From a virus (lineage: Duplodnaviria > Heunggongvirae > Uroviricota > Caudoviricetes), in IMG/VR virus record IMGVR_UViG_3300030294_000003: DNA of 64,000 nucleotides, one strand, 5' to 3'. The notes below the pieces were generated by a model, which saw nothing but the letters and a program-made list of their open reading frames with translations, was not told the origin of the DNA and did no database searches. Shown here in pieces: positions 36,185-56,530 of the stretch. The translations under genes were made by a program, and so were the position numbers. Position 1 is the first letter of the stretch; each line of letters starts with the position of its first letter.

Positions 36185-36205
36185 GTTAGTACATTTGTAC
36201 AAAAA
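36185..36205 (+). promoter_or_regulatory. class-2 promoter (aGTACATTTGTAcaaaaa; -7 36190-36197)
   Basis: GTACATTTGTA core. Confidence 0.4.
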
Positions 36206-43569: not shown

Positions 43570-44013
43570 ATGACAAAAGAATTAGAATTAAAGAAAATAA
43601 TCCGTAATGAAAAATTTTTACGTGAAAGAATTTCTATCGCTCTTGAAAAGGAGTTACAACTACAAAAAAATTCTGGTAAAAAATTTATTACAACTGAAGA
43701 TGTTGATTCACTAATTAAACAAATTATAAAAGAAGAAAGTAATAAAACATTTACTTCTTGCAAGGCAAAACCAATGAAAATTGAAGAACAGGTTGTGGAA
43801 CATTTTACCCCAAATGATGAAAGTATTGGGTTTCTAACAGCAAACGAATTTTTATATTTAAGAATTCAAATTAGAAATGAATATGAGTCTGGTTGGTATC
43901 TAATGTTTGAAGGAGAAAGAATAATGATTAAGCCTAATGGCGATATCGAAAAATGGCCGAACAATTTATATAACACAGCGACGGATCTTTTGAATGAACT
44001 TTTTGGAATTTAA
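43570..44013 (+). CDS. hypothetical protein
   Basis: 147-aa ORF with cassette P43 upstream. Confidence 0.55.
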   Translation: MTKELELKKIIRNEKFLRERISIALEKELQLQKNSGKKFITTEDVDSLIKQIIKEESNKTFTSCKAKPMKIEEQVVEHFTPNDESIGFLTANEFLYLRIQIRNEYESGWYLMFEGERIMIKPNGDIEKWPNNLYNTATDLLNELFGI

Positions 44014-44027
44014 ATATAGTAAATATT

Positions 44028-44876
44028 ATGGGAAAAATTAACAGAACACAACTTGAAATTGAAAAACTACTTTTAGAACCTTTTAAAGTTGGTGAGGTAG
44101 TTAGTGTAGACGAACGTTTGGTAGGTAATAGAGGATCTTCCAAAACATCTGCTAAAATTATTGAGATTGATGGTGATGAAGTTGTTTTGGAAGCGTTCGG
44201 TGGTTATAAAGATAAAAAAACGTATAAAGTTCACATATCCAACTTAGGAAAAAGTATTTATTACGTTGGTTATTCCCCGATGGTAAGACCATCATATCGC
44301 TTAGAAACCATTAATTTCTCACTTGAATCAATTGTTTTTGATTGTGGTTTTGATAGACGTGAAAGAAAATTTAAACCAGATGAAAATATTGGTGAAATTA
44401 CTGTACCAGAATTGAATTGGAACCCATATGTAATTCAATCTGATGGTTCAAAATTTTATTATCAACGAGAGTTTGTTTGGACATTGGAGGATAAACAATC
44501 ATTTATTGATTCAATTTATAACAACATATCTTTAGGTAAGGTTATTTTAAGGGAACGTGGTTTTGAATGGAATAGACAACAGGCATTACTTGGAAATACG
44601 GTGTTTGGTTATAAAGATATTGTTGATGGAAAACAACGTTTGAACTGCATTCTATCGTTTTTACAGGATGAATTTCCAGATTCAAAAGGATTTTATTATT
44701 CTGAATTTTCAAAAGCATCCCAAAACCAATTTTTAAATCACCAATTGCTTGGCTATGCAAAATTAGATGAAAACGCATCTGATAAAGATGTTATCGATTG
44801 TTTCCTTAGAACAAACTTTTCAGGAGTACAAATGAGTAAAGAGCACTTAGAGTATATTAAGACTATTAAATTATAA
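44028..44876 (+). CDS. DUF262-like ParB/Srx-fold NTPase domain protein
   Basis: 282 aa. The C-terminal half has YQREFVW followed by IVDGKQRLNCILSF, matching the DUF262 hallmark xQRxxVW and (I/V)DGQQRLT. The N-terminal ~140 aa are unassigned, and no HNH/DUF1524 partner was seen. Confidence 0.55.
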   Translation: MGKINRTQLEIEKLLLEPFKVGEVVSVDERLVGNRGSSKTSAKIIEIDGDEVVLEAFGGYKDKKTYKVHISNLGKSIYYVGYSPMVRPSYRLETINFSLESIVFDCGFDRRERKFKPDENIGEITVPELNWNPYVIQSDGSKFYYQREFVWTLEDKQSFIDSIYNNISLGKVILRERGFEWNRQQALLGNTVFGYKDIVDGKQRLNCILSFLQDEFPDSKGFYYSEFSKASQNQFLNHQLLGYAKLDENASDKDVIDCFLRTNFSGVQMSKEHLEYIKTIKL

Positions 44877-44880
44877 TATC

Positions 44881-45417
44881 ATGGAAAAATATAAATTACT
44901 TGAAAAGGCCTATGAAATTGACCTAAGTAAAATTGATGAACGTTATGTGTATGAACGAGAAATTGCATATGCAGATAGCGTTGGTAAAGCTAAAACAAAA
45001 TTATTAAGTACGGCAAATTATAATGGAATGCAACTTTATATCGGCGATGATCTAACATATATTAATATACCTGTTATTAGAGCTAAGGATCATGATAAAT
45101 TCGAATTTGAGGGTAAGGGAGAAACCATGTATTCAATAAATGAAATACTTCATGATCGAGAGCGAATAACGAAATTAGACGAACTACTTAATAATGAAAA
45201 TATAAAATTCTGTTACATTAAGAAAGGTAGCTACTATAAACCAGGATCATGTGGATATACGGATTTTAAACACAGGGCGGGGGTATTTACAAAAGAAGAT
45301 GCTGTTCAAAGTGCTAAATCATGTGATGACCTTTGGATTATCCCAGTTATCATTGAAGAGCATAACGAGATGATAAATAAAGAGATTGAAGAACTACAAA
45401 CGAGGTTATTGAATTAG
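44881..45417 (+). CDS. hypothetical protein
   Basis: 178-aa ORF followed by the GNRA hairpin terminator. Confidence 0.55.
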   Translation: MEKYKLLEKAYEIDLSKIDERYVYEREIAYADSVGKAKTKLLSTANYNGMQLYIGDDLTYINIPVIRAKDHDKFEFEGKGETMYSINEILHDRERITKLDELLNNENIKFCYIKKGSYYKPGSCGYTDFKHRAGVFTKEDAVQSAKSCDDLWIIPVIIEEHNEMINKEIEELQTRLLN

Positions 45418-48525: not shown

Positions 48526-50109
48526 ATGAAAAATTTAAATGTGAAACAAGACTTGAAAGAATTGGTTACGCAAATTGACGTAACTCCAAATGTGAATTTT
48601 TTAACAACATTAAGAAATTCTGGTTATAATAATTATACGGCTATTGCTGATATAATTGATAACTCGTTAGATACAGATGTAAACTCTAAAAACGTTAAGG
48701 TTCAAATTAAGAGAACTAAAGATGATTACGAGTTTATTAAAATTTGTGATGATGGGTGTGGTATGAATATTGAAACTCTTAATGAGGCCTTTAAGCTTGG
48801 TGCGTTAATGGGTAAAAATAAAGAATTTGATCTTGGTTCGTATGGGACTGGGTTAAAGGCAGCGGCTCTATCATTGGGTCGTAAATTTGTTGTTAAAACT
48901 AAAGCGTCAGATGACGATTTTTATATCGCTACATATGATTTGGATGTTATGATAATGACAAATACATTTGAAATTCCTGTTACAATAGGTAGTTGGGAAG
49001 AATATAGTGAATTTAAACGTGAGACTGGAAGTGATATAGGTACAGTTGTGATAGTATCTAAATTAGATAGAATAACAAATGCTAATATTACTGTATTCAA
49101 GGACATATTAAAAGGTAAACTTGGATTGTTTTATAAGTACTTTATTGATGAATTAAATATTAATTTATTTGTTAATAATGAATATATAAAAAGTGTTGAT
49201 CCAATGCTTAGAAATGAACCATATACTACATGTCTAACATCGAATGAAAAATTTGAGTATAATGAGTCTGAATTTAGATTCAGCGTATTTAATATTGAGT
49301 TCGTTAGCCAATCACTTTCAAATGAAGTAAACCGAAGTTCAGCTTATTCTGGGTTGTATGTTTATAGAAACAATCGTTTAGTTGGGAGTAGCTTGGATTT
49401 AGGTATTGTTGGTAAGGTTGGTGATGGTCACTTAAATGGTCTTAGAATTGAACTATTTTGTAGTGGTGATAGTGATAACTTATTTGGCTCAACCTTTAAT
49501 AAGATTATACACGAAAAAGATAAAAATGAAATCGATCAAGGGTTCAGAGATGTATGTAAAGGTAAACTTCGTGGTTATATTAAGACAGTAAAAAACAACG
49601 AAGATTCTAAAACAACCAACGAAAAGATTAGCGATGATGTTAAAAGTGAAATGGCTGAAATAGTCAAATCAATTAACCAAAATCCATTTATTGGAATAAA
49701 AAAGGAACGTGGGAAAAATGAGCAACATAAAGATATTATTCCAGCAACAACAGAAAAAGAAAAGAAGGAACCAGTTGACGATAGGATAAAAAACAAACTT
49801 GCTCCTCGAAAAAGAGAAGATAAATTTGCTGATTATCGGTTTACTAAGCTTGGTGAAAATGGGTTAATCTTTAAATCGGTTAAGGAACACGGACTATATA
49901 TTATAGAGATAAATCAAGAGCATCCATTTTGGATTAGATTTTTAAATAATGCAACTCTCCAAACGAAAGATGTAATTATTAAAATGTTATTTTCGTTAGG
50001 TGTATCTTTAGAAGAAACCGAATATTATAATAACCCTGAAAAGGAAGACTTATTGAATGAGTATTTTATTAAAGTAAGTGAACGACTAAGGAAGTTTATT
50101 ATATATTAA
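48526..50109 (+). CDS. GHKL-superfamily ATPase, MORC-like (HATPase_c_3-type)
   Basis: 527 aa with a Bergerat fold: N-box IADIIDNSLDT, G1 box DDGCGMN, and G2 box GSYGTGLKAAALSLG. The G-x-x-G-x-G-x-K-x6-G pattern is the MORC/paraMORC variant. A Lys-rich linker and a C-terminal domain follow. The gene has its own upstream promoter-like TACATTTG and a downstream intrinsic terminator. Confidence 0.7.
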   Translation: MKNLNVKQDLKELVTQIDVTPNVNFLTTLRNSGYNNYTAIADIIDNSLDTDVNSKNVKVQIKRTKDDYEFIKICDDGCGMNIETLNEAFKLGALMGKNKEFDLGSYGTGLKAAALSLGRKFVVKTKASDDDFYIATYDLDVMIMTNTFEIPVTIGSWEEYSEFKRETGSDIGTVVIVSKLDRITNANITVFKDILKGKLGLFYKYFIDELNINLFVNNEYIKSVDPMLRNEPYTTCLTSNEKFEYNESEFRFSVFNIEFVSQSLSNEVNRSSAYSGLYVYRNNRLVGSSLDLGIVGKVGDGHLNGLRIELFCSGDSDNLFGSTFNKIIHEKDKNEIDQGFRDVCKGKLRGYIKTVKNNEDSKTTNEKISDDVKSEMAEIVKSINQNPFIGIKKERGKNEQHKDIIPATTEKEKKEPVDDRIKNKLAPRKREDKFADYRFTKLGENGLIFKSVKEHGLYIIEINQEHPFWIRFLNNATLQTKDVIIKMLFSLGVSLEETEYYNNPEKEDLLNEYFIKVSERLRKFIIY

Positions 50110-50263: not shown

Positions 50264-50665
50264 ATGGAACAACAATTAATTGATAAAATAAATAAATTAT
50301 GCCCAGAAAATCAGGGTATTTTTATTGAACCATTCGGTTGCGATGGAATAAATGAACCATTAATTTATATTCGGTGGGTTACTGGTGGGATTGGCGGTGG
50401 AGGCTATCACGAAGACGATTATCAACGACGATATGATGGCAACGGTAAACCACAATTTGAAGTATTAAATTTGGTTTTAAAAGAACTGAAACAAAATATA
50501 ACGTTCTCACAATTTAAAGAAATTGAAGAATTAATCATATCAACAGAGAAAGATGAATTTCCTGACTACTATGGTAACTTCGAAGAGTATGGAATTGAAT
50601 ATATTAAATTAAGCCAATTAGAAGCACAAATTAATTATTTTAAAACAATTGAAAATTATGACTGA
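50264..50665 (+). CDS. hypothetical protein
   Basis: 133-aa ORF with a class-2 promoter at 50222. Confidence 0.55.
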   Translation: MEQQLIDKINKLCPENQGIFIEPFGCDGINEPLIYIRWVTGGIGGGGYHEDDYQRRYDGNGKPQFEVLNLVLKELKQNITFSQFKEIEELIISTEKDEFPDYYGNFEEYGIEYIKLSQLEAQINYFKTIENYD

Positions 50666-51482
50666 AGTTGAAAAAATACATAATGAAATTGATACAGCCC
50701 AAGATCGTTTACTCAATCAGGCTATGTTATTAATTTCAATGAATGATGTTTCTCAAGAACTTAAAAGCAAAGCTGATAGACTTCTAAAAATTGGGTTTAC
50801 AAGTAACCCATTGATTAAAGATGTTTTGAATAAAACAAATAGTTTGGTAAAAACAACCGAACAAGCAAATACTATTTCTCATTATAAAACCGAGTACCCA
50901 GGATTAAAGTTTTTAACCGAAACAGAATTTGATAGGATTTGTGATAAATACAAATTGATTTATGCACCTGTAGCTAATTATATTAAAGATATACCTGAGG
51001 TTAATTTGAAAGAAATTGAAACAGTAATAGAGTTGAACCCAAGCGACTATTTTGTTAATGTAATACAAATAAAGGTTCGTATAGACAATGAATGTATATC
51101 CTATTTAACAGATGAGGAGAAAGAGTTAATATATGTTAAAGGGTTTTATATTAATAATAAAGATTTAATTGGTTCTGGTTCTGGGATGTATGGTTATAGT
51201 CCAGATATAATTGTTTCTAAATTATTGGGTAGATCAATATTGTTTCAATTTAGTACTATTCACTGTGATATTATAGCTAGGGTAGAAAAGTCTGGTTTAT
51301 TTATAGCTGCACCAAAGTCACATTTCAATTTGAATGGATTGGAAAAACAAGGAAAAGGATTTTTTAAAATCTTTAAAATAGAGCCAAAAGACCCGATTGT
51401 TTTTCGATATGTTAATGGTGGAATTCAAGTTATTACCAAATGGGGAAATGAAGCTAATGATCCGAATTTAATAATATTTTAA
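50649..51482 (+). CDS. hypothetical protein
   Basis: 277-aa ORF with a 17-nt overlap. Confidence 0.55.
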   Translation: MKIMTEVEKIHNEIDTAQDRLLNQAMLLISMNDVSQELKSKADRLLKIGFTSNPLIKDVLNKTNSLVKTTEQANTISHYKTEYPGLKFLTETEFDRICDKYKLIYAPVANYIKDIPEVNLKEIETVIELNPSDYFVNVIQIKVRIDNECISYLTDEEKELIYVKGFYINNKDLIGSGSGMYGYSPDIIVSKLLGRSILFQFSTIHCDIIARVEKSGLFIAAPKSHFNLNGLEKQGKGFFKIFKIEPKDPIVFRYVNGGIQVITKWGNEANDPNLIIF

Positions 51483-51508
51483 ACAATTGAAAACATAATA
51501 TTAATAAT

Positions 51509-51832
51509 ATGAAAATACTAAGAATCTCAATTAGTTTAAATAAGGCTGGATTTACAACGGATATAGTGGAATATGATGCTTCAGAAAAAAAGCTAATATA
51601 TGTACTCACCAGATGTTCAGTTGATGGTGATACTGTAATTAGAAAAATACCCAAAGGTGAATTGACTGTTTTAAGATCACATATGCATCACACAACTAAT
51701 TTCATAGAGTACAATACCTATGCATTTCCAGAAGATGTTGATACAACCAAAGATAGATTAACAAAAGCAATTGTGGAAGTAGCTAAAAATTTTGAACAAG
51801 ATCTAAACCAGTTACTTAAACACATTAAATAA
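51509..51832 (+). CDS. hypothetical protein
   Basis: 107-aa ORF. Confidence 0.5.
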   Translation: MKILRISISLNKAGFTTDIVEYDASEKKLIYVLTRCSVDGDTVIRKIPKGELTVLRSHMHHTTNFIEYNTYAFPEDVDTTKDRLTKAIVEVAKNFEQDLNQLLKHIK

Positions 51833-51843
51833 AAACCAATATA

Positions 51844-52044
51844 ATGAAAAAATTTATCACTAACACTTTTATACCGTATTTTATTTTTTTTATTGTGTGT
51901 CTATTAATTGTTCATTTTGGTGTTGGTGAAGTACTTAATATAAAATCGGAAATTTTTGTTGCAACGATTATCGCAATGTTTTTAAACATACTCTTCGATA
52001 TTTCTGAATCAATTGATAATATAAATAAAAAATTAACTAAATAA
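51844..52044 (+). CDS. small membrane protein
   Basis: 66 aa with two TM helices. Confidence 0.45.
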   Translation: MKKFITNTFIPYFIFFIVCLLIVHFGVGEVLNIKSEIFVATIIAMFLNILFDISESIDNINKKLTK

Positions 52045-52055
52045 ATCTATAAAAT

Positions 52056-52472
52056 ATGGCTTGGCAGTTCTACGCAATTATATTCGTTACGTTTTTGGGT
52101 ATATCACATTTAGTTATTAATTTGGGTATTAATAAAATCAATCAACTAAAAACCTACTTTATTAAACATAAAATTCCGCTAATATTTGATGAAATATGGG
52201 TGAAAGATGACCTACTTAAAATTAAATATATTAATATCTCGGATCAAAAAATAGTCGGATTTAATATGATTATTGAAATAGAAAAAAAAGATGGCGAAAA
52301 GGAATTAATCGATTACTATGTTGATAAACTAGAATCACCAATAAAAATGTTTATTAATAAGACATTTACATTATACGTTCCTATAAGTGAAAATGAAAAA
52401 ATAATAAACACTTATACTACTAAGGTACTGTTTTTAGATGGTAGTTTTTGGAAACTTAAAAAAATAAAATAA
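52056..52472 (+). CDS. membrane-anchored protein
   Basis: 138 aa with an N-terminal TM helix. Confidence 0.5.
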   Translation: MAWQFYAIIFVTFLGISHLVINLGINKINQLKTYFIKHKIPLIFDEIWVKDDLLKIKYINISDQKIVGFNMIIEIEKKDGEKELIDYYVDKLESPIKMFINKTFTLYVPISENEKIINTYTTKVLFLDGSFWKLKKIK

Positions 52473-52473
52473 T

Positions 52474-52698
52474 ATGAAAGAAAATAACGAAATTGAAATT
52501 GTTAAGGCTTTGGGTGAAACAATTGGCTATGGACATATGATGGTATTGGCATCTGCATTGTGGAGAGAGAGTTTAAAAGAGAAAAACTACCCAACATCTG
52601 GTGCATTTATTGGTGTCTGTATGTCTTCGGTGTATAAAAAATATCGAAATGAAATTGAAAATGAAAATAAATTTTACGATAAATATATAACAAAATAA
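52474..52698 (+). CDS. hypothetical protein
   Basis: 74-aa ORF. Confidence 0.45.
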   Translation: MKENNEIEIVKALGETIGYGHMMVLASALWRESLKEKNYPTSGAFIGVCMSSVYKKYRNEIENENKFYDKYITK

Positions 52699-52704
52699 AC
52701 TTAT

Positions 52705-53262
52705 ATGGAATTAAATGAGTTTGGTAGTAAAATCAAGGGTCTTATGGGCTTAAAAGAAAATAAACAAGTAAATGGTTTTGGTTGTGTGATGTTGTATGTC
52801 TACTTTCCAGAATTTAAAGAGTTACAATCTAAAATTGATGAGAAGGATTTATATAATGATGATACAAAGTCATATGGTTTTGAAAAATCGGAACATATTA
52901 CCCTTTTATATGGTCTCCACGAAGAAGTTAAAGATCAACAAGTTAAAGATATTATGAGTAAATTTGATTTTGAAGATGTAGAAATTAAAAATGTTTCTTT
53001 ATTTAAAAATGAAACATTCGAAGTACTAAAATTTGAAGTTTATAAAGAAAAGTATTTATCTAAATGTAATAAGGAACTTTCAAAATTACCTAATACAAAC
53101 GAATATAAAATATTTAATCCTCATTTAACACTGGCGTATTTAAAATTAGGTGAAGGTGATAAATATATTGAAATGTTTAAAGACCTGAAATATGAATTAC
53201 AACCAACAAAAATAGTATATTCAAAAATAGATGGTTCGGAATTAAAAATAAAAATTGATTAA
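52705..53262 (+). CDS. 2H phosphoesterase (LigT/ThpR-like 2',3'-cyclic phosphodiesterase / 2'-5' RNA ligase family)
   Basis: 185 aa with two H-x-T-x motifs in the typical context and spacing (EHITLLYGL and PHLTLAYLK). Confidence 0.65.
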   Translation: MELNEFGSKIKGLMGLKENKQVNGFGCVMLYVYFPEFKELQSKIDEKDLYNDDTKSYGFEKSEHITLLYGLHEEVKDQQVKDIMSKFDFEDVEIKNVSLFKNETFEVLKFEVYKEKYLSKCNKELSKLPNTNEYKIFNPHLTLAYLKLGEGDKYIEMFKDLKYELQPTKIVYSKIDGSELKIKID

Positions 53263-53264
53263 TC

Positions 53265-53456
53265 ATGACAAATAAAGAATTTTACACCCATACTGGTTTT
53301 AACTTTGATGATGTAATTGAAATGTTGAAAAGTGACTCAGTATATACTGTTTTACGTTATGGTTATAAAAACCCATCAGATAGTGGTGCTGATGAATGTG
53401 ATGATTGTAAAAACATTTCACTATATGGTATTTCTCAATTATTACGTTCTATGTGA
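53265..53456 (+). CDS. hypothetical protein
   Basis: 63-aa ORF. Confidence 0.4.
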   Translation: MTNKEFYTHTGFNFDDVIEMLKSDSVYTVLRYGYKNPSDSGADECDDCKNISLYGISQLLRSM

Positions 53457-53586
53457 ACTAAACCACCACCAAGCCGACAGGCTGAAGGAAGGGTATGTTT
53501 TGCTTGGATATTAAAAAATACTAATATATTATGTGGTTAATTTGTATAATTATTGCTTTTTATTTTTACTTGGAAAATGAAGAGCC

Positions 53587-53616
53587 TAACATATATTAAA
53601 TATTTAATATATGTTA
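53587..53616. promoter_or_regulatory. 30-bp perfect palindrome (candidate operator) upstream of the 710-aa gene
   Basis: TAACATATATTAAAT|ATTTAATATATGTTA is its own reverse complement. A third half-site, CACATATATTAAT, lies at 53631-53643 immediately before the class-2 -7 box. Confidence 0.5.
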
Positions 53617-53640
53617 AAGAAATTGTTAATCACATATATT

Positions 53641-53662
53641 AATCGTACATTTGTATCGAATT
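53641..53662 (+). promoter_or_regulatory. class-2 promoter (cGTACATTTGTATCGAATTttaaaac; -7 53646-53653)
   Basis: Same 18-mer as the copy at 50222. Confidence 0.5.
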
Positions 53663-53746
53663 TTAAAACAGTTATAAATAAAATTAAACAAGTCCAATTA
53701 CGAATAAAGTAGTGTTGGAAAGAAAAAAAACAAAAAATTAAAAAAA

Positions 53747-55879
53747 ATGAAAGAACTAACTAATTTAATGCAAGCACAATTTGATAAGATGTGCGCTACT
53801 GGTAAACTTTTTAGGAGTGAAGTTACTGGTCAAAAAGTTTGGGATGTATATCTTCAAGCTTTTAATCCAGAAGATAATCCTATTTTTCGAGATCCAAATT
53901 CAACAGTTCATAACTGTAATTTCTGTAAAAATTTTGTTCGTAGGTATGGTAATATTGTTGCTATTGGTGATGATAATGAAATTATGTCTATTTGGGGTGT
54001 TGATGCACCTGAAGAGTATAAAAATTCAGCAAACACATTAAATAATTTAATAGCAAATTCTAAAATAGTTGAGGTATTCTTTGAAACATATAATGAATTA
54101 AACTCATTACCTTATGAAAAGAATTGTACTAAAACACAAGCTACATTTAAATTAGGTGTTGAAAAAAATACAAAAAGGTATACGAAAGAGGAGGCTGAAA
54201 TGTTCGGTGTTGTAAAGCCAAATGAAGAAATAACTTTCGACCATTTCAATTTATCTATATCAAAACAATTCGTTGATCAAACTGGTTCTTCAGTTGAAAG
54301 TATAATTGGTAATTATAGAGATTCAAAAAATGTTTTTCAACGTGGGATGGAAGAAATTTCATTAGATACATTGATACTTGTAAAAGATTTAATCAATCAG
54401 GAGTCACTACTTGATGGTAAAACTCATTTATTTAAGGTTGAAAAAATGATCACGTTTAAAACAGAATATGAGTCTAAATCTCAAAAAGAGAAAGATAATT
54501 ATTGCTGGGTGGCTTCATATAATAATCAGCTTGCTAAGTTCCGTAACGAACTGATTGGTGTACTTTGTAGTGAATTGTCTGAGGGTAAGGAACTTAACGA
54601 AGCTTGTAAATCTTGGAATAAACGTGTTGATCCAATTAATTATATGAAAACAACTACCCCTATTACCAAGAAACAAATTGAGGAGGCAAAATTATTTGTA
54701 GAGGAAAATGGATTTGTCGAATCTTTTGATAGAAGGTTTGCTACCATTGATGATATAAAGGCATCCGAAATACTTCACGTTAATATGGGGGATGGATCTA
54801 TTAAAAATGTTTCAATATTCGATAATGTAAAATCTACTTCGACAAGACACAAGAGGAGTGAATTCGATGGTATTGATGAAGTTACAATTGATAAGTTTAT
54901 GTCTGATATTCTACCTAATTGTACCTCTGTGGAAGCCTTTTTGTTAAGTAAACATGAGGGTAATTTGGTTTCACTTACCACTTCAAACAAGTCTGAAAGT
55001 AAGCCTATTTTTAAATGGAATAATAACTACTCTTGGACTTTTAATGGTAATTTAGCAGGTAAATCTCAAATCAAAGAAGCTGTTAAAGGACGTGGTGGAA
55101 ATGTGATTGGTGATGTTAGAATAAGTTTGGCATTCCCTCTAACTACTGATGACTACGATCTTCACGTACAAGATACTGATGGAAACCATATTTATTATTC
55201 AAATGTAAGACAAAAACACAACTCTTCTGGAATGCTAGATTTAGATGCTCAAGGTGTAGACGGTGCTCAAACCCCAGAAAAAAGAGTAGAAAACATAATA
55301 TTTACAGATAAATCAAAAATAAAAAATGGAAATATAAAAATTTGGGTTGAAAATTACTCACAAAGAGGATTAAGAGTTCCATTTGATATTGAAATTGAAA
55401 TTGAGGGTGATATTACAACATTAACATATGATAGGAATCATTCAGGTAATAAAGCTGAGGTCGGTAATATTGTAGTTAAAAATGGTATGTTTGAATTACA
55501 TCCTGATGCTTATATGACTTTAAAGGAAAGTACAAATTTATCAAAAGAAGTTTATGGGTTGGAAACAAATAATTTTCATAAGGTTAACTTAGTATGCCTT
55601 TCACCTAACCATTGGGGTGATAATAATGTTGGTAATAAGCACTATTTATTTATGTTAGATGGTTGTAAATGTCCAACAGATATTAGAAGTTTTCATAATG
55701 AAAACCTATTACCTGAATTGGCTGAACATAGAAAAGTATTGGAGGTACTTGGTGCGACTAATATGATTAAGCCAACAGATAAACAGCTATCAGGTCTTGG
55801 ATTTAATGCCACTGTAAGGGATGAGATAGTAGTTAGACTACAAGGTTCATTTAAAAGAGTTATCAAAATTAAATTTTAA
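53747..55879 (+). CDS. large hypothetical protein (710 aa), function unknown
   Basis: The longest ORF in the window, with a clean frame. A class-2 promoter and a palindromic operator lie upstream. I could identify no catalytic motif. Confidence 0.7.
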   Translation: MKELTNLMQAQFDKMCATGKLFRSEVTGQKVWDVYLQAFNPEDNPIFRDPNSTVHNCNFCKNFVRRYGNIVAIGDDNEIMSIWGVDAPEEYKNSANTLNNLIANSKIVEVFFETYNELNSLPYEKNCTKTQATFKLGVEKNTKRYTKEEAEMFGVVKPNEEITFDHFNLSISKQFVDQTGSSVESIIGNYRDSKNVFQRGMEEISLDTLILVKDLINQESLLDGKTHLFKVEKMITFKTEYESKSQKEKDNYCWVASYNNQLAKFRNELIGVLCSELSEGKELNEACKSWNKRVDPINYMKTTTPITKKQIEEAKLFVEENGFVESFDRRFATIDDIKASEILHVNMGDGSIKNVSIFDNVKSTSTRHKRSEFDGIDEVTIDKFMSDILPNCTSVEAFLLSKHEGNLVSLTTSNKSESKPIFKWNNNYSWTFNGNLAGKSQIKEAVKGRGGNVIGDVRISLAFPLTTDDYDLHVQDTDGNHIYYSNVRQKHNSSGMLDLDAQGVDGAQTPEKRVENIIFTDKSKIKNGNIKIWVENYSQRGLRVPFDIEIEIEGDITTLTYDRNHSGNKAEVGNIVVKNGMFELHPDAYMTLKESTNLSKEVYGLETNNFHKVNLVCLSPNHWGDNNVGNKHYLFMLDGCKCPTDIRSFHNENLLPELAEHRKVLEVLGATNMIKPTDKQLSGLGFNATVRDEIVVRLQGSFKRVIKIKF

Positions 55880-55916: not shown

Positions 55917-56294
55917 ATGGAAATGTACAAAGAAGCTGCAAAGCTGGGATTACGAATTGTTACTGTTAAAGGCCCTTTGTCGGTAGAACAGTTGTTTGGA
56001 ACAGATAAGGAAACTCTTATTTTAGCGGAAGAGAGTTTAACTGATCAAGTTGAAAAGCTTGGTAAGGTATCAAGAAGGTCTACTGGAGTTAGAGGTAAGA
56101 ATGTTGAGCTTTTAAAATTGAAATTATCAATCGTTTCAGATGTGTTAGATACTATTGAAACGGAAGAAGAAACTGCAAGAACTGAAGCTGCCAAAAGGCT
56201 TAACAATAAGAAAATTATCGAGCTTATAGCTGCTAAAAAAGAACTTCAACTTGGAGAGAAGTCTATCGAAGAACTTGAATCGATGCTTCAATAG
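55917..56294 (+). CDS. hypothetical protein, C-terminal coiled coil
   Basis: 125-aa ORF followed by a 270-bp structured ORF-free region. Confidence 0.55.
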   Translation: MEMYKEAAKLGLRIVTVKGPLSVEQLFGTDKETLILAEESLTDQVEKLGKVSRRSTGVRGKNVELLKLKLSIVSDVLDTIETEEETARTEAAKRLNNKKIIELIAAKKELQLGEKSIEELESMLQ

Positions 56295-56299
56295 TGAAA

Positions 56300-56530
56300 A
56301 AATACTTATTTTACCCTGAAAAGTTAAACTAAAATAATTAACAATTTAAAAACTAATCTTAGTTGTTTCTGATATGTTTTTAATACAAAAATTCGGGGTG
56401 AAATAAGTTGTAAAATAAATTGGTTGTATTGTTTGTAATTCAAATCATATTTTACACAACTTTTACTGTTTTTTTTACACAACCAATAAGAATTGCCAGT
56501 TTGTGAAAATCGGTAATTCTTTTTTTAATC
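56300..56530 (+). ncRNA. candidate structured non-coding RNA / 3' UTR element
   Basis: ORF-free region with nested inverted repeats (56304-56316 with 56395-56408; 56409-56417 with 56448-56456), a direct repeat TTTTACACAAC x2 (56450-60 and 56474-84), and a terminal strong terminator. Confidence 0.25.
56488..56527 (+). terminator. strong intrinsic terminator
   Basis: AAGAATTGCC-14 nt loop-GGTAATTCTT followed by TTTTTTT. Confidence 0.65.

Follow-up and report, generated by a model that had tools for sequence, protein, structure and literature searches.

The element described here lies in a non-coding gap of 290 bp (53457-53746) between an upstream operon (50264-53456) and the gene for a 710-aa protein, in a 64-kb stretch of phage DNA that we call the window. 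The original prediction gave 287 bp for this ORF-free region, a length that needs correction; that the region is one of a few long ones is right, as it is one of the six gaps of at least 200 bp in the window. The G+C content of the window is 26% and 158 of its 159 ORFs are on the + strand. The features of the locus, in the coordinates of the window, are the following:

53522-53541, - strand: imperfect inverted copy of the third half-site and its flank
53555-53585, + strand: 13-bp hairpin GCTTTTTATTTTT-ACTTG-GAAAATGAAGAGC (-11.4 kcal/mol, z -4.9), abutting the palindrome
53587-53616: perfect 30-bp palindrome TAACATATATTAAATATTTAATATATGTTA, two 15-bp arms without spacer, at -71 to -42 (numbered from the predicted start) and centred near -56.5
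53589-53599, + strand: half-site 1, ACATATATTAA, core of the left arm
53604-53614, - strand: half-site 2, ACATATATTAA, core of the right arm
53622-53625, + strand: predicted -33 element ATTG, at about -36 to -33, 20 nt 5' of the -7 box
53632-53642, + strand: half-site 3, exact 11-mer ACATATATTAA (with flanks, TCACATATATTAAT), at -26 to -16, within the 20 nt that separate the -33 and -7 elements
53646-53653, + strand: predicted -7 box TACATTTG (TAnnTTTG), at -12 to -5
about 53658: predicted start site (+1), positioned by consensus (PMC9723704)
53747-55879, + strand: 710-aa gene, DUF8224 (PF26675), phrog_1735
55917-56294, + strand: 125-aa gene, phrog_2018
56488-56527, + strand: canonical terminator, stem of -12.9 kcal/mol followed by TTTTTTT

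The promoter at 53646 is a well supported prediction of a Bacteroidota sigma-A-type promoter. The sigma-A consensus of this phylum, as defined in Flavobacterium, consists of a -33 TTTG and of a -7 TAnnTTTG located at -12 to -5 (PMC9723704); the gap contains a TAnnTTTG box and, 20 nt upstream of it, a TTG, the range within the class being about 19-21 nt. The arrangement (C/T/A)TTG-N20-TACATTTG is present at five sites of the window (36190, 48429, 50222, 53646 and 57484), upstream of genes, and constitutes a second promoter class that appears past about 46 kb, with one site, at 36190, before that point. The -33 element of the 53646 promoter is ATTG, while the other members have C or T before the TTG and the consensus is TTTG. 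An 18-mer, GTACATTTGTATCGAATT (53645-53662), is found identically upstream of the gene at 50264 (promoter 50222), and this identical core is not accompanied by a palindrome. The -7 box proposed at 53646 by the original prediction is thus backed by a five-fold motif, by the shared 18-mer and by the match to the sigma-A consensus. Hexamers of the sigma-70 type are not enriched in the window (126 versus 128.6 expected).

The 125-aa gene is probably co-transcribed with the DUF8224 gene; a phrog_2018 gene is also located 3' of a DUF8224 gene in LR756500 (36% identity, E 4e-19). The terminator at 56488-56527 is the likely end of this two-gene unit. Just 5' of it, in the 270-bp gap past the DUF8224 operon, there is a direct repeat, TTTTACACAAC, present twice with a 21-bp spacing (56440-56475). 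Another small feature, a 9-bp hairpin TCCAATTAC...GTAGTGTTGGA at 53693-53719, occupies the predicted 5' leader of the DUF8224 gene, about 30 nt before the ATG.

The exact self-complementarity that had been claimed for 53587-53616 was verified by script: the sequence equals its own reverse complement, so that the dyad symmetry that one expects of an operator extends to 30 bases out of 30. No perfect palindrome in the window is longer, and the runners-up, at 18 bp, are 12 bp shorter. The 11-mer ACATATATTAA that forms the core of each arm occurs five times in the window when both strands are considered; three of the five copies lie within 54 bp, and the remaining two (45055 and 51126) are both in coding sequence. 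The third copy of the cluster is the further half-site that had been announced at 53631-53643, and it is indeed there, as an exact 11-mer, at 53632-53642. It was said to abut the -7 box, whose position is correct; the two are actually separated by two bases, CG. Taken with its flanks, the third copy reads TCACATATATTAA, which is one base away from TAACATATATTAA, the arm of the palindrome, and the likeness ends at the borders of the motif (T-N-ACATATATTAA), which looks like a common recognition sequence rather than a longer duplication. Half-site 3 has no symmetric partner, since direct reading of the expected site (53647-53657) gives a match at 2 of 11 bases only. The distance from half-site 1 to half-site 3 is 43 bp, i.e. 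about four helical turns, so that both would be on the same face of the helix. The palindrome ends 5 nt 5' of the TTG of the -33 element, and it is followed by a TGTTAA unit (53624-53629) and then by the TCACA with which the third half-site begins. On the other side of the palindrome, the imperfect inverted copy at 53522-53541 reads TTAACCACAT(AA)TATATTAG as compared to TTAATCACATATATTAAT, with a 2-nt insertion. The right arm and its flank, TTAATATATGTTAAAG, are found again, without any change, at 51126-51141. These 16 nt are the last ones of a promoter-like stretch, TTTAACAGAT...TTAATATATGTTAAAG (51100-51145), inside the ORF 50649-51482, and this stretch may represent a promoter in decay or a half-site on its own.

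How probable is such an arrangement in DNA of this composition? A perfect palindrome of at least 30 bp was obtained in one of 6580 order-1 Markov simulations of the window and in one of 200 order-2 simulations, and extrapolation of the decay of the window's own palindrome lengths leads to an expected number of about 0.005. The chance of the 30-bp palindrome is therefore in the range of about 1e-4 to 5e-3 overall. As for the additional half-site, ACATATATTAA has a background of 2 per 128 kb elsewhere, from which the chance of a further copy at 50 bp or less on either side is about 3e-3. Matches to ACATATATTAA with one mismatch are over-represented in the window (26 versus 13.9 expected). The palindrome and its extra half-site are real, and not an accident of a 26% G+C composition.

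The sequence of the palindrome also recalls the early-type promoters of this phage. There are at least 43 of these, near-identical over about 60 bp, in intergenic positions from 1 to 45 kb (consensus aATTTAACAAATTnCATTTTnATAtaTcAATgTTAAAnanTATCTTTGTAT); examples are those at 2726, 6153, 7711, 9070, 16766 and 43530, each of which precedes one or a few small ORFan genes. Their -7 box, TATCTTTG, fits the sigma-A TAnnTTTG (PMC9723704), and around their -33 element they have a terminal dyad, TTTAACA-N19-TGTTAAA, the conservation of which suggests that all early promoters share a site to which a factor binds. The pattern TAACA-N20/21-TGTTA is found 14 times in the window, as against about 0.9 expected, and apart from the palindrome all 13 occurrences are in early promoters. 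The form with N21 accounts for 12 of them, every one in early promoters, and the form with N20 for two, the early promoter at 2691 and the palindrome. The interior of the dyad is self-complementary at 12-18 of 31 positions in early promoters, as compared to full symmetry in the palindrome. This observation was made post hoc; it nevertheless ties the palindrome to the promoter motif vocabulary of the phage and favours a DNA element recognised by a protein.

Other recurrent hairpins are present in the same phage. The motif (A)ATACTC-N4-GAGTA(C/T)(C/T)TAAA, a short intergenic hairpin, is repeated seven times in the window (5354, 10374, 17419, 19612, 24490, 35616 and 42971), each time immediately past a stop codon, with 25-45 nt left to the next ATG, and in gaps devoid of an early promoter; it could represent a second class of signal, e.g. 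the promoter of a different polymerase or a site of RNA processing. About 1.6-2.8 kb before the start of the window (7200-8350 of L048, same phage), tandem perfect-palindrome hairpins, TGTCAAAAAATCCTTTTTTGACA, TGGGGTTAAAATTTTAACCCCA and TGTCAAAAATATCTTTTTGACA, are located right after gene ends; past them come some 600 bp of non-coding DNA, the core of which is comparatively rich in G+C.

A search for further copies had been suggested by the original prediction as a check, and it brought none of the dyad: the palindrome is not repeated in the window, in the 10 kb upstream or in the 7 kb downstream, i.e. in about 81 kb of a phage of at least 263 kb, where the only exact half-sites outside the locus are the two in coding sequence mentioned above. 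The dyad with any 4-nt centre is absent from IMG/VR. Among JGI metagenomes it is found at 11 loci, one of which is the same locus of the same phage, the other 10 being unrelated and resembling AT-rich hairpins. A scan of 185 579 bacterial and archaeal species genomes gave one match, in an unrelated Clostridia MAG. Repetition of the recognition sequence is thus limited to the three half-sites of the locus. The near-absence of the dyad from species genomes speaks for a site specific to the phage rather than for a host regulon, and the idea of a host operator was accordingly discarded. A multi-copy MITE was excluded too, as there is no other copy of the same element in the window, its flanks, IMG/VR, JGI metagenomes or species genomes.

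Five assemblies of the locus, from JGI, ENA and Logan, are 100% identical, and the next-closest DUF8224 gene is only 68% identical at the amino-acid level; between these two extremes, conservation is uninformative. IMG/VR, JGI metagenomes and the protein collection contained, as relatives, either identical copies of the locus or genes with at most 68% identity. The regions upstream of DUF8224 genes at 27 related loci contain no equivalent element and only a few unrelated palindromes. Those that were considered, AATGTTCTAttTAGAACATT in three loci (L015, L018 and L023) and a perfect one of 26 bp in another (L027), were put aside since they have no common pattern. One of the five assemblies, the MEGAHIT contig k141_325982 of ERZ27250296 (ENA), starts at 53589, 2 nt inside the palindrome, and the four others read through it. 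This may be an effect of a self-complementary 30-mer on the assembly graph, or a coincidence.

The phage itself can be placed as follows. The DNA of the 710-aa gene is distantly similar to that of the Cellulophaga phages phi17:2 and phi4:1 and of a 462-kb uncultured phage, and the host is probably a member of the Bacteroidota. An identical 710-aa protein is encoded on at least 23 metagenomic contigs, and since these are up to 263 kb long, the phage is a giant one. Neither tRNAs nor Rfam families were found in the window. At least 1904 proteins are homologous to DUF8224 at E ≤ 1e-50; for this family we found no mention in the literature, no annotated function and no match in the PDB, whether by sequence or by Foldseek with an AlphaFold model (mean pLDDT 70). 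DUF8224 gives therefore no clue as to why the gene should need special regulation.

The original prediction had also suggested, as a check, to look for a small HTH protein nearby: with Pfam, PHROGs and NCBIfam, the ORFs located at about 1-31 kb and 39-64 kb, nearly all of them ORFans, yielded neither an HTH nor a family of regulators, and no HTH was detected in the DUF8224 protein or in the 125-aa phrog_2018 protein. Because most of these ORFs have no family at all, the absence of a recognised regulator is weak as negative evidence. Family matches were limited to a GHKL ATPase, a LigT/Acb1-like protein, GmrSD_N, an RNA ligase, FGase, metallophosphatases and an HD phosphohydrolase; matches to 'Serglycin' were rejected as artefacts of the GS linkers used to join concatenated ORFs. 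Several of the matches are grouped on the upstream side of the locus, namely a GHKL/MORC-like ATPase (HATPase_c_3, E 7.5e-20; 48526-50109), a LigT/2',5'-RNA-ligase-like protein with a weak Acb1 match (52705-53262) and GmrSD_N (DUF262; about 44000-45400), and the RNA ligase, FGase and metallophosphatases come downstream. The genes near the locus look related to defence or counter-defence.

What could be the role of the palindrome? We tentatively propose that, together with the extra half-site, it is a protein-binding operator acting on the sigma-A-type promoter of the operon formed by the DUF8224 and 125-aa genes, a reading that we think has a good, if less than even, prospect of being right. 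The facts from which it starts, i.e. the symmetry, the clustering of the motif and the position of both relative to the predicted promoter, are direct observations; the binding of a protein, the nature of the binder and the sign of regulation are what we infer from them. The ligand would be a sequence-specific DNA-binding protein, probably dimeric or tetrameric. One dimer would occupy the perfect dyad (-71 to -42), and a further subunit or dimer, recruited cooperatively, would bind to the lone half-site of the spacer (-26 to -16); occupancy of the spacer would then exclude the host RNA polymerase, resulting in repression and in control of the timing of expression of the operon. Repression would be favoured, activation from the upstream dyad being the alternative, and the binder is more likely to be encoded by the phage than by the host. 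Support comes from the fact that the third half-site fills the spacer, a classic position for steric repression, and that, measured against the predicted promoter, the sites overlap or adjoin its core, as those of an operator do. Several points speak against an operator: there is no second copy in about 81 kb and thus no visible regulon; the assemblies are identical and thus reveal no sign of selection; the 27 related loci have no equivalent element; the two exact half-sites outside the locus are in coding sequence; an arm of 15 bp exceeds the usual length of an HTH half-site; activators do not classically bind at -56.5, where the dyad is centred; and the palindrome also forms an RNA hairpin of -10.9 kcal/mol, next to a hairpin that is strand-specific. 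An operator with an auxiliary site was also what the original prediction had suggested; the anatomy of the locus fits it, and the searches that it proposed, for copies and for an HTH protein, have given no positive support.

The last of these points leads to another possibility, which we consider unlikely, namely that the palindrome and the hairpin at 53555-53585 act at the level of RNA, in transcripts that read through from the upstream operon (50264-53456). They would terminate these transcripts in a non-canonical way, stabilise their 3' ends or be processed by an RNase, and thereby separate that operon from the DUF8224 unit. The two hairpins are back to back, with energies (-11.4 and -10.9 kcal/mol, z below -4 in both cases) similar to those of the obvious terminators of the window; the first one needs G.U pairs and hence exists only as + sense RNA, and the whole 290-nt gap folds with a z of -4.3. 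Furthermore, a terminator scan (53000-54200) revealed no canonical terminator for the upstream operon, terminator-promoter cassettes are common in the window, and elsewhere in the phage tandem perfect-palindrome hairpins come directly after a gene end (L048 7707-7751). However, the stem formed by the palindrome contains a single C-G pair in 13 bp, where a G+C-rich stem would be expected, and what follows it, AAAGAAAUUG / AAAGAAATTG, is not a U-tract; on both counts it differs from the real terminators of the window and is not a canonical one. Nor does an RNA hairpin need a perfect dyad, as the neighbouring one, which tolerates G.U, illustrates; the third half-site would have no role in such a model, unless as an alternative partner of the right arm, and there is no match to an Rfam family. 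An outer complementarity was also noticed, between 53496-53541 and 53625-53670 (duplex of -21.1 versus -14.1 ± 3.0 for shuffles), of which the imperfect inverted copy at 53522-53541 is a part. It was equalled by 12 of 500 shuffles and, among genomic controls, by 12 of 453. Being marginal (p about 0.025), this 46-nt inverted repeat is not relied on here.

The palindrome might also have no function. It would then be a quasi-palindrome of the TAACA...TGTTA type, similar to an early promoter, that was made symmetric by template-switch (hairpin-templated) replication, and the match of the third copy, AT-rich as it is, would be fortuitous. The palindrome does fit the early-promoter frame with N20, as at 2691, its right arm and flank (16 nt) are identical to a promoter-like stretch within the gene at 51126-51141, the motif is AT-rich with an excess of one-mismatch matches, and the element is in single copy without a sign of conservation. 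We nevertheless find this explanation rather improbable, given the precise placement with respect to the -33 and -7 elements and the very low probability that a perfect palindrome and an exact 11-mer within the promoter spacer would arise together by chance. Perfect palindromes that are long and AT-rich are unstable, and the fact that this one is unchanged in five assemblies suggests that it is at least tolerated. Symmetrisation by template switching could also be the origin of a functional site. Far less credible is a structural role of the DNA, as a replication origin, a cruciform, a packaging site or the end of a mobile element (MITE). The gap is long, AT-rich and non-coding, it has nested inverted repeats, two inverted TTAANCACA, each matching the DnaA-box consensus at 8 of 9 positions, flank the palindrome, and one ENA contig begins 2 nt inside it. 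But the cumulative GC skew rises monotonically, without a turning point, no canonical TTATNCACA box is present anywhere in the window, iterons are lacking, and the neighbouring genes code for the GHKL ATPase, the LigT-like protein and the RNA ligase and not for replication functions; the outer complementarity, which 12 of 500 shuffles equal, is marginal.

Coming back to the operator, if it is real, it would be a gene-specific control site on the promoter of DUF8224, a widespread and uncharacterised family of large phages. It would provide a handle on temporal regulation in giant Bacteroidota phages, whose promoters and regulators are almost unstudied, and a fragment of 60 bp would be a ready bait for the regulator. 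Palindromic operators at promoters are textbook material, and the value of the finding is thus local rather than conceptual. A more ambitious scheme, suggested by the motif shared with the early promoters and of quite low probability in our view, is that a single factor reads the TAACA/TGTTA dyad at the early promoters, at least 43 in number, as well as the palindrome, a perfected version with high affinity, and that it could silence the early promoters at the same time as it activates or represses the DUF8224 operon. If true, a giant phage of Bacteroidota, dependent in other respects on the host sigma-A RNA polymerase, would have a temporal switch operated by one factor.

How does the locus compare to known systems? 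As an intrinsic terminator would, it has a stable hairpin past an operon, with an energy near that of the true terminators of the window, but with one G-C pair and no U-tract. With Bacteroidota sigma-A promoters it shares the -7 box TACATTTG, the TTG 20 nt upstream and an A-rich leader without Shine-Dalgarno; these account for the host promoter only, not for the palindrome, and the start site is here a predicted one. Phage factors that switch transcription from early to middle or late genes, such as p4 of phi29 and MotA of T4, bind near -35. In the same manner, a phage factor could bind in or upstream of the host-type promoter described here, which shares the TAACA/TGTTA frame with the early promoters; the differences are that no factor has been recognised and that the element is present at one promoter only. 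Aca-controlled anti-CRISPR promoters have two inverted repeats, one of them in the core promoter, and are autorepressed by an HTH protein from the same operon. Like them, the DUF8224 locus combines a strong gene-specific promoter, an upstream dyad, a site in the core promoter and a small operon ending at a terminator; unlike them, neither product of its operon has an HTH, its second site is a half-site only and there is no link to anti-defence. The operators OR and OL of lambda, to which CI and Cro bind, and those of P22 are multi-site phage operators that overlap promoters. Compared to these, the arms are here of 15 bp and perfectly symmetrical, a lone auxiliary half-site takes the place of a second dyad, no adjacent repressor gene or lysogeny module is recognisable, and the promoter is of the Bacteroidota -33/-7 type. 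What the DUF8224 locus has in common with the lambda and P22 operators is the clustering of dyad sites, one of which overlaps the core promoter, with a spacing fit for cooperativity.
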